Shown here piece after piece: positions 31,082 to 61,159 of a stretch of DNA of 64,000 bases. Source of the stretch: a virus (Duplodnaviria > Caudoviricetes). The stretch spans positions 15,687 through 79,686 of the IMG/VR virus record IMGVR_UViG_3300001598_000043. One strand, written 5' to 3'. Under the pieces are notes generated by a model that had not been told where the DNA came from, ran no database searches, and worked only from the letters and a program-made list of their open reading frames with translations. Position 1 is the stretch's first letter; each line of letters opens with the position of its first letter. Position numbers and translations under genes: made by a program.

Positions 31082-32389
31082 CTAAAATACGTCTGCCTTA
31101 TCGTTTGAATATTTCTTCTTTGTGTCCTTTATTGTTCTATTAGCATTTGTATCACTGTCACTTGGAATGTATGTGAAATCACCACTGTCAATATCCCACA
31201 TATAATTAAACTTATCACCGATTCTACCAAATCTCTGTTTCTTTATTCCTATCTCAAGCACACCATTGTTTTTCTGCCTAATAGATAATACTTTAGAAGC
31301 ATTGTGGGCAATACCATCTGAATCTCTGATACTCTCTAATTCTGGTGTTCCCTCGTCTTCATCCTTTGACATTGCACCATTTCTGTTGGCCTGTACTACA
31401 ACTAATATTGGTATCTGCATCTCAACTGATAATGACATTAAGTCCTCACTAATATTTGTAAGTGTTGTAGTCTTATTATCACCACGTCTTGACCTTTCAT
31501 CTGATAGATATGTAATACCATCAATTGCAATCATATCTAACTTATATTTTTTAATCCAATTCTTTAACTTTGTAACAGTAACATTCTTACCAAAGTCATT
31601 TGGTGTGGATACAATAAACTTATTACCTCTACTCTTAAGTGATTCTATGTAGTTTCTATACTCTTCATCATCGACTTCATTCTTTCCCCACATCAATCCC
31701 TTATTAGAAAAGTTATTAAATAGTGTATCAAATCTAAATCCAATACTACTTGCACTCATTTCAGGTGACATATATCCTACATTATAGCCTGTCTGCCATA
31801 CGTGTGTACACATTTTTTCAAGTACCCAAGATTTACCTTGATTAGTTCTTGCAACTATTACTAAAAATTCTTCTCCTCTTTGTATTCCGTGAGTAACATC
31901 ATCAATCTCTTTAAACCCACTCTCAAAGAATGCATCTTTCTGATGTTGTTTAGTTTCAATGAATTTATCTAATCTTTCAGATGCCTGTGCAACGATATCT
32001 ACACCTTCAATATCATATTCAGGTTCGAGATTTCCAATCTGACTTATTAAATATTCTGAAGCTGCATTACTATCAGTTTTAAGTAAATCTGCCATATGTT
32101 CAATAACTGGCACTGTTTTGTAATATAAATACTCTTCTCTAATAGTACTTACTAAATATTTATCTGATTCTGACACATCTACTAATTCAAATCCATCAAA
32201 ATTTGCCAAGAATGTTGATTTATCTGGTACATTTCCATATTTATCATAATGGTTTTGTATGAAGTTTATTTCTTCCTCATAACCAACAAAATAATCTGAT
32301 GTTAATAAATTTTCTTCTAATATTGACAAATCTCCAGATGATAAAATCTTTGAGATTATTTGTATTGACACTATTGGTACAGATGTCAT
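31082..32389 (-). CDS. dnaB: Replicative DNA helicase DnaB-like
   Basis: VARTNQGKSW, YMSPEM, IAIDGITYL, VVVQANR, ESIRDSD, KKQRFG. Confidence 0.9.
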   Translation of the reverse strand: MTSVPIVSIQIISKILSSGDLSILEENLLTSDYFVGYEEEINFIQNHYDKYGNVPDKSTFLANFDGFELVDVSESDKYLVSTIREEYLYYKTVPVIEHMADLLKTDSNAASEYLISQIGNLEPEYDIEGVDIVAQASERLDKFIETKQHQKDAFFESGFKEIDDVTHGIQRGEEFLVIVARTNQGKSWVLEKMCTHVWQTGYNVGYMSPEMSASSIGFRFDTLFNNFSNKGLMWGKNEVDDEEYRNYIESLKSRGNKFIVSTPNDFGKNVTVTKLKNWIKKYKLDMIAIDGITYLSDERSRRGDNKTTTLTNISEDLMSLSVEMQIPILVVVQANRNGAMSKDEDEGTPELESIRDSDGIAHNASKVLSIRQKNNGVLEIGIKKQRFGRIGDKFNYMWDIDSGDFTYIPSDSDTNANRTIKDTKKKYSNDKADVF

Positions 32390-32391
32390 AT

Positions 32392-33057
32392 CTACACCCT
32401 CCTATCTGTAGAACCTTTAAGTATGATTTTTCTTGAACCATTCCATATTCTACTGTATAACTTCGGCCCTACTTTTAAATTTAAATCTTTGTCTAATAAA
32501 TTACCTGTAAATATGTTTGACTTTTCTTCTAAATCTCTTTGGTCTAAAAAGGTTAATAACTGTGTCAAATCATAACTTGATAAGTAATCACTACCCATCT
32601 CATCCCATACAACTAAATCTGCACTTATTAGATTATGTTTTAACTCGTTTAACGACTCATCTACACGTTCAAAATCTTTTAGTCGAAGTAATAACGTAGG
32701 TACGTGTACAAACAGTCCTCTTACACGAAATCCGTTGCCTGGCCATATCTCATTGAAGTACTTTAACAATAACTTTATTGACCAACTTGTTTTTCCATTA
32801 CCATTATACTTACTTGCAATATATAGATTGTTTCCATTCTCTACAAACTCAACAATATTATCTTTAATGTCTGCAAGTTCTGTAAATGCTTCAAAATCTA
32901 TTTTTTCTGGTGTAAGACTTTTTGGAATCTGTTTTGCTTTAGGTAATCCACTTGAGTTCATTAAATAACTCATCTCAAGATATCTTATACAACTATTAGA
33001 ACATTCATTTTCACAAACTTGTTTATACCAACAATCAGAAAACCGCTCTTTGTCCAT
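32392..33057 (-). CDS. DnaC/IstB-like helicase loader ATPase
   Basis: GNGKTSW, ADLVVWDEMG, IFTGN, YSRI. Confidence 0.85.
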   Translation of the reverse strand: MDKERFSDCWYKQVCENECSNSCIRYLEMSYLMNSSGLPKAKQIPKSLTPEKIDFEAFTELADIKDNIVEFVENGNNLYIASKYNGNGKTSWSIKLLLKYFNEIWPGNGFRVRGLFVHVPTLLLRLKDFERVDESLNELKHNLISADLVVWDEMGSDYLSSYDLTQLLTFLDQRDLEEKSNIFTGNLLDKDLNLKVGPKLYSRIWNGSRKIILKGSTDRRV

Positions 33058-33928
33058 TTTTCTCTGCCTCCTTTTTCAACATATCAGTAAATTCAATTGC
33101 ATCTGTTTCTGATTCGAGTGATTTAGCATCTGATGCTTGTACTTGCATTGATGTTCTTGGATTTGACTGATTATTAGAAGATGTAGGTTTAAATAATCCT
33201 TTGTATTCGTGACTGATTGAATAATCAATTGTGATTAATGCGTCATCTAAATTATCACATCTCTCATCCAACTTATTTATAATACTCATAAAACTCTTAA
33301 ATTTATCCAATTTGAGTCTCATTGTTAAATACTCGACTAATTTACCCTTAAGAGTCTCTTTGTCCTTATCTGACTTAATAAACTTGCACGTATCTACATA
33401 AGAATCTATATCATCCATACTCTTTTCATATAAATTCTTTTTCTTTGGTTTTTGCTGATTAAATAATTTATTTGATTCAGATTTTTTCGGTTTTTCTTCT
33501 AATACTTTAGTATTAGAATTACTATTATTATCTATTAACTTATTATCTGATGTCATTTTAAAATTACATCTGATGTCATTCTGGAGTGACATCGAGTCAT
33601 CAAAAAGTAAATTAATAGTTAACTCTGATACTGAATAAAATGTTTTAGAACCTCTACTATTTCTCTCCGTTGTAGATAATAAGAATCCTTCTTTTTTAAG
33701 GGTACTTAATCTATTACGTAGAGTTCCTTCTGATATGCCAAGAATTGGTAAATCTTCTTGTAATTTGTTGTGATTAATCCATACATATGGAATATCATCA
33801 CATATAAGATGTGTCATTTTTGGTGACCCATTTGCTTGTATTATATATTCAAGTAAAACTAAATCTGTTAAATCAAGATTAGTTTCCATTACTTTGGCTT
33901 GGTTAAAACCTAATATAGAATATTTCAT
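33035..33928 (-). CDS. Replication initiator (N-terminal winged helix)
   Basis: LDLTDLVLLEYI...YVWINHNKLQEDLPIL; heads the dnaC-dnaB operon; contains iteron-like repeats. Confidence 0.75.
   Translation of the reverse strand: MKYSILGFNQAKVMETNLDLTDLVLLEYIIQANGSPKMTHLICDDIPYVWINHNKLQEDLPILGISEGTLRNRLSTLKKEGFLLSTTERNSRGSKTFYSVSELTINLLFDDSMSLQNDIRCNFKMTSDNKLIDNNSNSNTKVLEEKPKKSESNKLFNQQKPKKKNLYEKSMDDIDSYVDTCKFIKSDKDKETLKGKLVEYLTMRLKLDKFKSFMSIINKLDERCDNLDDALITIDYSISHEYKGLFKPTSSNNQSNPRTSMQVQASDAKSLESETDAIEFTDMLKKEAEKNGQRAVF
33545..33601. repeat. Iteron-like repeats (candidate origin) inside initiator gene
   Basis: ATCTGATGTCATT at 33545-33557 and 33568-33580, inverted core TGACATC 33587-33593, next to a very AT-rich tract. 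Confidence 0.55.
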
Positions 33929-33950
33929 ATTTACCTCTTACTTGTGAATT

Positions 33951-34051
33951 AAAAAACTCATACAATAGAGCATTTGGGGTACTCTAAAGTATGAGTCTAA
34001 TGTTGACCGATATTTAAATAGCATTAACCGATGCCCCAAACATCAGTCAAC
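33951..34051 (-). ncRNA. Structured 5' leader: switchable hairpin, kissing loop and intrinsic terminator upstream of initiator
   Basis: Hairpin with loop UUUGGGG (34034-34040); terminator ACUCAUAC/UAGAG...CUCUA/GUAUGAGU plus U6, whose loop contains CCCCAAA (33973-33979). Confidence 0.65.
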
Positions 34052-34145
34052 GAGTTGTGAATGAAATTTAAACCGACAAGTTATCCGTCACAATCTTTAG
34101 TTAAAGGTGTTAGATAAAGTGTGAATAAACTCTAATCACTCTGTT

Positions 34146-34174
34146 ATTGTATCAAGTGCCATTTTTATAGTCAA
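34146..34174 (-). promoter_or_regulatory. sigmaA-type promoter of replication operon
   Basis: TTGACT-N17-TACAAT, about 210 nt upstream of initiator ATG. Confidence 0.75.
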
Positions 34175-34184
34175 TACAAAATTA

Positions 34185-34418
34185 TTATTTACTTCCAAAA
34201 GTTTTTAAGATATCTGCAATTTGAGTATCTACCTCATTATTTACAGTATCCCATAATAAATTACGTTCTTCTTCAACATCAATATCTTCTAAATCTGGAA
34301 TTAATCTTTCCTCGGCATATTCAATTGTATAGAAATTATCTTTGATTTTTACAGATGCTCTTGACGTAGCAGTGATTGATGTGATTATTGCTTTACTTTC
34401 ATACTTATTCTGTGCCAT
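34185..34418 (-). CDS. Hypothetical protein
   Basis: ITATSRASVKIKDNFYTIEYAEER; start MAQNK. Confidence 0.6.
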   Translation of the reverse strand: MAQNKYESKAIITSITATSRASVKIKDNFYTIEYAEERLIPDLEDIDVEEERNLLWDTVNNEVDTQIADILKTFGSK

Positions 34419-60166: not shown

Positions 60167-61159
60167 TTAACAATATCTCATATACTCATTTTTGACGTGC
60201 TGGTTAGATAATACTGTATATGTGGTAGTTGTATTGATGTCTGAATGCCCCATTAACAACTGAACTGTTCTAATATCCATACCTCTTTTAACTTTATCTG
60301 TGCCAAATTGTCTTCTAAATTTATGTGGATGTACTCGTTCAATTGATGTTCGTTCAGCAAGTTTTCTCATATCATTTTCTATAGAATTTTTGCCAATTCT
60401 TGTACCAAATTTATTAACAAACAATGCTATATCATTATCATTTCTTGACTCCAAATATCTTGCAAGGTGATATGCACATACGTCTGTCATATACGTGACT
60501 CTTTCTTTATTGCCCTTTCCATGTCTGATAACAACATCGTGTGTAGTTAGATTAATATCATTAATATTCATTGCAGTCAATTCAGATACACGAGCTCCAC
60601 TTGATAACAATAATTCGACTTCTGCACGTTCTCTTAATGTCTTACAGTTCTCTCGTATCTTATCAATCTCCACATCTGTAAATGTAGACTTGACTTTTTC
60701 TTGGAATGTTATTGGATTTATCTTCTGCATTGGATTCTTTTCAATTAAATCCTCTTTCAATGCCCAATTATAAAAAGATGATAGATACGACCGATAGTTT
60801 TCCAATGTTCTTAATGATATATTTTTCTGTTGTTTTGCCATCCATCCTCTAATATCAAATACGGTGACTTCCAATAGTGGTTTTCCTAAATCATCGTGAA
60901 ATCTATTAAGTATTCTCATATACATATAACAAGTCTTTTTTGACTTACCCTCTGTAAGCAATGAACCTATATAATATTTTATTAGTTCTTCTGTGGATGT
61001 ATCATACTCAACTAATGTAGTAACTCTTGGTGATATCTCATATTTATCAAATATCCCAATAAAAATATCAGTTATTTTACAAATATCATCTGGAAAATAA
61101 TTATTTGTAATCAAAGCGTTTTTAAATTCTCTTAACATGTTTTCTCTGTAATCGTTCAT
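60167..61159 (-). CDS. Tyrosine recombinase (XerC/D-like)
   Basis: SSGARVSE (R), GKGNKER (K), HPHKFRR (HxxR), LMGHSDINTTTTY (H, Y). Confidence 0.93.
   Translation of the reverse strand: MNDYRENMLREFKNALITNNYFPDDICKITDIFIGIFDKYEISPRVTTLVEYDTSTEELIKYYIGSLLTEGKSKKTCYMYMRILNRFHDDLGKPLLEVTVFDIRGWMAKQQKNISLRTLENYRSYLSSFYNWALKEDLIEKNPMQKINPITFQEKVKSTFTDVEIDKIRENCKTLRERAEVELLLSSGARVSELTAMNINDINLTTHDVVIRHGKGNKERVTYMTDVCAYHLARYLESRNDNDIALFVNKFGTRIGKNSIENDMRKLAERTSIERVHPHKFRRQFGTDKVKRGMDIRTVQLLMGHSDINTTTTYTVLSNQHVKNEYMRYC

Follow-up and report, generated by a model that had tools for sequence, protein, structure and literature searches.

We have identified, at the entry to the replication module of an uncultured rumen phage, an RNA leader that can form either of two mutually exclusive hairpins, the first of which displays a loop exactly complementary to the loop of an intrinsic terminator located further downstream. 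Comparison of sequences from related phages confirms that this loop-loop pairing (hereafter the 'kiss') is real and goes far beyond chance. The leader most likely determines what share of transcription continues into the replication genes. For the more specific reading that it constitutes a two-state, bistable attenuator, which gates transcription into the initiator-DnaC-DnaB genes such that the kiss leads to read-through and the terminated RNA represses in trans, we see an even chance of being correct.

The stretch of DNA analysed here (the 'window') comprises 64,000 nucleotides of a 79,686-bp IMG/VR virus record rated complete, and all features described below are located on its minus strand. 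The first gene 3' of the leader encodes an O-like replication initiator of 297 residues (33035-33928; match to phrog_678, E = 1.2e-12), and is followed by genes for a DnaC-like helicase loader (32392-33057), a DnaB-like helicase (31082-32389) and a primase. The leader occupies the 256-nt intergenic region between the initiator and a conserved gene for a 77-residue protein (34188-34418), which is located directly upstream of the leader promoter. The element thus sits downstream of a promoter of its own and ahead of the initiator-DnaC-DnaB genes, the expression of which it was proposed to gate in an earlier note on this DNA. In bacteriophage lambda, the origin repeats are located inside the O gene; since the layout here is similar, two tandem 23-nt repeats (ATCTGATGTCAT...) within the initiator gene (33545-33593), where inverted repeats are present as well, probably represent the replication origin. 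A tyrosine integrase/recombinase is encoded at about 60200-60676 of the window (75886-76362 of the record; PF00589, E = 5e-37). The phage may thus be temperate or plasmid-like, which bears on the usefulness of an immunity-type RNA.

The leader itself is readily delineated. A candidate sigma-70 promoter, TTGACT-17-TGaTACAAT (34146-34174), is near-consensus and TG-extended (score 10/12 plus TG). It places the transcription start near 34139 and predicts a leader of ~211 nt, in agreement with the ~210 nt proposed earlier, and a terminated RNA of ~189 nt. A poorly conserved 5' part (34053-34139) is followed by strand A (GUUGACUGAU, 34051-34042), the loop sequence L1 (UUUGGGG, 34040-34034), a proximal partner of strand A (AUCGGUUAAU, 34032-34023) and a distal partner (AUCGGUCAAC, 34011-34002). 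Pairing with the proximal partner yields hairpin P (34022-34052), which has a 12-bp stem with three G-U pairs and carries L1 in its loop. Pairing with the distal partner yields hairpin D (34002-34051, ~21 bp), which reuses strand A, buries L1 and thereby excludes P. The intrinsic terminator hairpin T (33956-33996) has a lower stem of 8 bp and an upper stem of 5-7 bp, separated by a UU/UU internal loop; CCCCAAA, its loop of 7 nt (33979-33973), is perfectly complementary to L1. A U tract (33951-33956), a Shine-Dalgarno sequence (AGAGG, 33938-33934) and the initiator ATG at 33928 (together with the former spanning 33926-33938) complete the arrangement. All strands, loops and the terminator named in the earlier note are thus present on the minus strand where it had placed them, including the 7-nt loop complementarity. 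Its '13-bp stem, U6' terminator needs to be qualified: the hairpin exists (-20.2 kcal/mol), while the 13-bp stem is interrupted by the UU/UU loop, and the tail counts as U5 or U6 since its first U doubles as the last base of the lower stem. On the transcribed strand, T combines a G+C-containing hairpin with a U tract immediately 3' of it, and thus has the sequence features of an intrinsic terminator; that a simple terminator scanner missed it is due to the internal loop and the low G+C content of the stem.

In addition, the motif UU(U/C/A)AUUCACA occurs in three copies of the same orientation (34117-34127, 34055-34066 and 33942-33953), that is, right after the start site, right before hairpin P and right after the U tract, so that two of the three copies are found in the 5' part of the leader. 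One copy is a perfect match to a DnaA box (TTATTCACA). Related leaders show no enrichment of the DnaA-type motif (14 found versus 12 expected), and the repeats are specific to the window.

Within the window alone, the 7-mer complementarity of L1 and the T loop is not significant (3 copies per 64 kb versus 3.3 expected), and it is the relatives that carry the argument. Protein searches with the initiator provided 98 homologues, which led to 78 loci in viral, genome and metagenome collections, mostly from rumen samples, with 52 unique upstream regions; a BLASTN search of the leader against 50,697 phage records yielded no match. Twenty-nine leaders are of the window's type, 21 of them located directly before the initiator and eight with a gene inserted before the initiator. 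In every one of these 29, the apical loop of the terminator possesses a perfect Watson-Crick complement of 6-8 nt, at a distance of 37-67 nt on the 5' side of the terminator. A binomial calculation assigns this outcome a nominal probability of ~2e-46, a figure which ignores relatedness; shared ancestry is, however, not a sufficient explanation, since the loop pairs represent 24 distinct sequences, and merely 2.65% of 754 non-cognate loop pairings reach 6 nt. For example, UUUGGGG/CCCCAAA (L1/terminator loop) of the window is replaced by GUGCGAG/CUCGCAC in leader L011, GGGCAG/CUGCCC in L012, CCGCACC/GGUGCGG in L016 and GGGUGAG/CUCACCC in L042. The window and L011 share an identical stem, GUUGACUGAUG, and yet have wholly different loop pairs, their initiators being only 41% identical, while between the close relatives L039 and L004 a double change in one loop is matched in the other (UGUCGGG/CCCGACA versus UUACGGG/CCCGUAA). 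Complementarity of the loops is thus conserved with strong covariation, as it should be if the loop-loop pairing with the terminator that had been proposed from the window takes place. No further copies of L1 or of the T loop exist within 1.5 kb at 27 of the 29 loci, and the other two contain only scattered, distant 6-mers.

A formal count of base pairs was obtained from a covariance-model alignment of the GGUUAGC subfamily (A6), which comprises 12 leaders, does not include the window and treats the kiss as a pseudoknot. MAFFT alignments, either of all 29 leaders or of the window's subfamily, are out of structural register, and the window is therefore covered by the register-free comparison of loops given above. 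In A6, (i) the kissing helix is 94% paired, with five of its six pairs changing on both sides, (ii) the whole structure is 97.3% paired, compared with 72.4% in shuffles, (iii) the covariation score is 0.76 versus 0.29 in shuffles, none of 500 shuffles being as good, and (iv) sliding the partners by 1-3 columns reduces pairing to 25-50%.

The surroundings of the leader are likewise preserved. It stays after the 77-residue gene and before the next gene even where a gene has been inserted ahead of the initiator. An extra gene between leader and initiator is seen at loci L004, L006, L008, L034, L037, L045, L046, L058 and L061, and at some loci it resembles, by eye, a GIY-YIG/T5orf172-type endonuclease. 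Identical loop pairs also occur on clearly different scaffolds (L039, L046 and L067; L014, L036 and L055; L005 and L037), UGUCGGG/CCCGACA occurring three times, and near-identical scaffolds can bear different loops; this hints at either module exchange or preferred kissing sequences. T loops begin with C nearly always.

Several lines of evidence indicate on which strand, and as which kind of molecule, the element acts. The sense fold is better than the antisense fold in 26 of the 29 leaders, by 8.2 kcal/mol on average, and a strong sigma-70-type sense promoter (scores 10.5-12.5) is found in ~20 related leaders, 65-175 nt upstream of the terminator. Given this, along with the G-U pairs in the stems, the leader acts as an RNA on the sense strand. 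The antisense strand of the related leaders carries no promoter scoring above 10 and none at a conserved position, which speaks against the control by a cis-encoded antisense RNA that had been considered before. An open reading frame of 4-40 codons led by a Shine-Dalgarno sequence, as required for a leader peptide, is present in merely two of 21 leaders, and none is conserved. The U-rich tails of the relatives are comparable to that of the window, and weak in a few.

The same comparison bears on the very improbable alternative that the element functions as DNA, that is, as a set of initiator-binding repeats, an origin cruciform or an operator. This explanation can point to stem sequences that are conserved within subfamilies, and to the motif ATCRGTYAA, which occurs at 12 sites in the window (including 33163, 34003, 34024 and 34042) versus 3.4 expected from shuffles, three copies being the leader strands A, A' and A''. 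Free variation of loops which retain complementarity is, however, indicative of nucleic-acid pairing and not of recognition by a protein, and the G-U pairs let only the sense strand fold well; moreover, the element is preceded by a promoter and followed by a U tract. In view of the strand asymmetry, the loop variability and the better origin candidates inside the initiator gene, initiator-binding repeats were rejected as an explanation.

Free variation of the loops also argues against a small molecule being recognized. The 29-leader alignment, although out of structural register as stated above, has no invariant column, and the loops have no invariant letters, so that a ligand pocket in the loops is unlikely; in the absence of invariant unpaired nucleotides, a metabolite riboswitch, the element having been called riboswitch-like before, is thus unlikely as well. 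More broadly, it appears improbable to us that a trans factor other than RNA, either a small ligand or a protein (the 77-residue protein, the initiator or a host factor) bound to conserved stem or spacer sequences, selects P or D. Stem letters are admittedly conserved within subfamilies, as for the stem that the window shares with L011, and spacer motifs such as AACNNCAUA recur, yet the spacer letters pair, in D, with the 5' flank of L1, which accounts for their conservation. The 77-residue gene always adjoins leaders of the window's type, and its product (43-75% identity among relatives) is more conserved than the initiator. The protein is predicted to form a β-hairpin and a long helix (pLDDT 86), and has no Pfam family and no fold match in the PDB, its only look-alikes being uncharacterised phage proteins; it exhibits no known RNA-binding fold and was not detected beside a second type of leader that is described below. 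We regard its gene as a syntenic neighbour of the leader, for which a role in the mechanism is conceivable.

Turning to the two-state behaviour, the leader of the window is far more stable than shuffled versions (z = -5.25; none of 200 shuffles is as stable), and the constrained fold of P (-12.9 kcal/mol) is far less stable than D, which is the minimum-energy fold (-23.7 kcal/mol). The distal partner had originally been noted as the better match for strand A. When transcripts of increasing length are folded, P is the minimum-energy structure at 112-130 nt and D from 136 nt onwards, while 167 nt are needed before the T loop has been fully made. As D takes over, the unpaired probability of L1 drops from 0.57 to 0.07; that of the T loop is 1.0 in the mature RNA. 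This two-state design is retained in all 29 leaders: P shows L1 in a loop of 6-9 nt, and D, which shares the 5' strand of P and in which the spacer pairs with the 5' half of L1, excludes P. Across the 29 leaders, energies range from -8 to -13 kcal/mol for P (mean -10.5), from -18 to -32 kcal/mol for D (mean -24.2) and from -6 to -14 kcal/mol for the kiss duplex (mean -9.9). Since the sum for P and kiss (-20.4 kcal/mol) comes close to the value for D (-24.2 kcal/mol), the design is near-bistable. Consistently, the family mean of the unpaired probability of L1 is 0.90 in nascent and 0.32 in mature RNA, compared with 0.97 for the T loop.

P and D never overlap the stem of T. They end 0-11 nt before it in all 29 leaders, and the linker between D and T has 0-5 nt, and 11 nt once. 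The kiss is thus the sole link between switch and terminator. The earlier proposal of an attenuator that works by alternative folds therefore holds for the two folds and for the kiss with the terminator, while the folds themselves do not touch the terminator stem; for this reason, the leader does not represent a classical competition between antiterminator and terminator.

A strong promoter that is followed at once by a strong terminator, ahead of essential replication genes, leads us to infer that termination is regulated or deliberately partial. We envisage the following course of events. During synthesis, the local hairpin P would fold first and display L1. The distal strand would emerge ~20 nt later and could displace P in favour of the more stable D, by which L1 is hidden. 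The T loop would emerge ~30-45 nt after the distal strand. If L1 were still exposed at that point, it would capture the T loop in a 7-bp kissing helix, which presumably would keep the stem of T from closing completely and allow the polymerase to read into the replication genes. If D had already formed, the terminator would fold freely, and the ~189-nt RNA would be released. With its own L1 hidden and its T loop displayed, this RNA might in turn bind L1 of nascent leaders in trans and pre-empt the capture in cis. It is here that we speculate most freely: accumulation of leader RNA would shut down expression of the replication genes, and the effect would grow with the number of templates, in a manner reminiscent of the CI RNA of phage P4. 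Since D wins by energy ~30 nt of transcription before the T loop is available, the kiss in cis would require a long-lived P or a helper.

The direction in which the kiss acts is suggested by three arguments, among them one from analogy and one from rough geometry. First, the guanidine-IV riboswitch provides a precedent for read-through driven by a kiss (PMC11611296). Second, the linker between P and T (17-35 nt) would come under tension if the kiss were coaxial and both stems were complete, for which we roughly estimate a mean of 4.4 Å per nucleotide and values of up to 6.7 Å. Third, in the second type of leader, pairing of the T loop with the start region should block translation, so that only a kiss promoting expression makes the transcriptional and the translational output agree. 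The linker argument is not uniform across the family. In several relatives the span amounts to 2.8-3.5 Å per nucleotide, so that the linker is unstrained and leaves room for the kiss and the full terminator together, which counts against the kiss being the 'on' state.

It is thus worth considering the opposite sign, although we judge it unlikely: the kiss would lock T or speed its folding and switch expression off, whereas D, abutting T, would weaken termination and switch it on. In this case, termination would be relieved by leader RNA in trans, and the leader would serve lytic replication as a delay timer that has positive feedback. Both loops are located on closed stems of a size seen in classical kissing hairpins, making a kiss with the intact terminator plausible, the linker is long enough in several relatives, and D, being directly beside T, could clash with the exit channel of the polymerase. 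The weakening of a terminator by an adjacent helix has, however, no known precedent, and the guanidine-IV precedent points the contrary way. Furthermore, with the opposite sign the second type would always be off, since the kiss would terminate transcription and, when no kiss is formed, the free T loop would block the start region.

This second type comprises seven further unique leaders, which are found ahead of more distant initiators. As read from their sequences, the promoters are of the Bacteroidota style (TAnnTTTG) and Shine-Dalgarno sequences are absent, and the carriers probably are Bacteroidota phages. Here too, a hairpin loop matches the tip of the terminator hairpin, over 7-8 nt. 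A mini-hairpin presents the tip, and the conserved strands flanking it, GAAA and GAGUA, resemble the loop E (sarcin-ricin) motif. In five of the seven leaders the T loop matches, in addition, a third site of 6-8 nt that is located 9-17 nt before the start codon and covaries (CUGCUAU, CGGUCAU, CAACUAC). The leaders with three sites, located ~175 nt ahead of the initiator ATG, are L021, L022, L024, L078 and L080, and covariation extends to each of the three sites. In the window's type (the window and 28 relatives), only the upstream site is present. Transferring the sign of the kiss from the second type to the window's type hence assumes that the two share a mechanism.

There are two further proposals. 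We tentatively advance the idea that the attenuated product represses its own leader: the T loop of the ~190-nt RNA would bind nascent L1 and, in the second type, also the site at the start codon. Such a sense-on-sense circuit for copy-number control or immunity would do without a countertranscript, would possess a private specificity of 6-7 nt in each phage lineage, and would operate in phages of two bacterial phyla. The other, rather unlikely in our judgement, is that the leader primarily is a stand-alone small RNA gene for immunity or copy control, comparable to P4 CI or P1 c4, with the T loop as the antisense element and L1 as a built-in mask or decoy, and with the replication genes being reached by read-through or from upstream promoters. 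A strong promoter and a strong terminator do enclose 120-230 nt, the mature RNA displays the T loop while hiding L1, and the second type exhibits the three-site layout known from P4; the presence of the tyrosine integrase makes possible a lysogenic or plasmid state in which replication needs to be silenced. Leaders of the window's type, however, offer no second target within 1.5 kb, the sole other copy of the L1/T-loop sequence in the 79.7-kb genome is located inside a coding region, and the C4 model of Rfam remains unmatched. We prefer the attenuator reading.

Accounts of how phage replication genes are controlled usually centre on repressor and antiterminator proteins. Here, a compact RNA whose covariation is very clear is located at the entry to the replication module of many uncultured rumen phages, and is associated with promoters of both the Firmicutes and the Bacteroidota type. 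If the mechanism proposed here were true, the leader would be a natural terminator switch operated by a freely variable kissing code of 6-7 nt, and its 24 natural loop pairs might be used as non-interfering parts in synthetic biology. It would then also serve as a model for how replication is timed or limited in phages that have no known repressor, and would represent a new RNA family for the annotation of phage genomes. Finally, the leader provides a testable case of co-transcriptional kinetic control in which no ligand takes part.

As to known RNA elements, a cmscan search of the whole window against Rfam at the gathering score gave no hit, in line with the earlier note's view that this is not a known Rfam family. 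Permissive searches (E up to 10 for the leader and up to 1 for 11 related loci) gave matches at chance level only (snoRNA, miRNA and caiA, with E of at least 0.35), none of them to C4 or IsrK, and a literature search found no paper describing this leader element. Membership in the C4/CI, guanidine-IV, IncI/IncB and pT181/pIP501 families was rejected, since of each family at least one of the defining features tested is absent here. Comparison with these systems is nonetheless instructive.

Guanidine-IV riboswitches are ligand sensors, which implies a conserved binding site. They likewise contain two leader hairpins, with the loop of the first kissing the loop of the terminator hairpin, a feature that they have in common with the phage leader. 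In guanidine-IV (the mepA motif), the kissing loop hinders completion of the terminator stem and so causes read-through, within a narrow co-transcriptional window (PMC11611296). The phage leaders differ in having 24 loop versions, no invariant columns and no Rfam hit, so that no ligand is implied, and in possessing the additional choice between P and D.

The rep leaders of the plasmids pT181, pIP501 and pAM-beta-1 are similar in that an intrinsic terminator is located within the leader and that kissing RNA contacts decide on it co-transcriptionally, as is proposed here. In the plasmids, one strand of the terminator takes part in the alternative pairing, and a countertranscript serves as effector; in the phage leader, by contrast, neither P nor D ever overlaps T, and a conserved promoter for a countertranscript is absent. 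In the IncI-alpha and IncB plasmids (repZ of ColIb-P9 and repA of pMU720), an activating pseudoknot is opposed by the antisense Inc RNA (PMC8053102). The likeness consists in expression of an initiator being governed by a hairpin loop that pairs in cis with a distant site, while an inhibitor RNA competes for this pairing and thereby provides a copy-number-like feedback (PMC8053102), an arrangement which for the phage leader is proposed. Those systems act on translation, require a leader peptide and employ an antisense RNA from the opposite strand, whereas the phage leader has neither a conserved leader peptide nor a conserved antisense promoter, and the partner of its hairpin loop is the loop of a terminator.

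While the kiss with a terminator loop is thus common to guanidine-IV, the leader as a whole would, by analogy, work most like the leader-derived antisense RNAs of phage P4 and the c4 type. In the immunity of satellite phage P4, the CI RNA carries seqB and targets seqA and seqC, and we group with it the c4 RNA of phages P1 and P7. Antisense-RNA control by seqA and CI RNA is confirmed in PMC3632133, which cites Sabbattini 1995 and Forti 2002. The differences are considerable: the phage leader matches the Rfam C4 and IsrK models neither in sequence nor in structure; its antisense element is the loop of an intrinsic terminator, with the end of the RNA predicted to result from termination and not from processing; a built-in switch between P and D hides one of the partners; and the hosts are rumen bacteria of Firmicutes and Bacteroidota type. 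A loop complementary to both an upstream and a downstream site, as in C4/CI, is present in the five three-site leaders of the second type, which also share with P4 the order of upstream site, antisense loop and downstream site; the window's type has two sites. Otherwise the likeness would extend to the entire family: (i) a short RNA is made from the leader of the very operon that it controls, on the same strand, and is complementary to sites therein, (ii) the outcome is that transcription ends prematurely, or translation is blocked, upstream of genes for phage replication or antirepressors, and (iii) the complementary sites change together between relatives.
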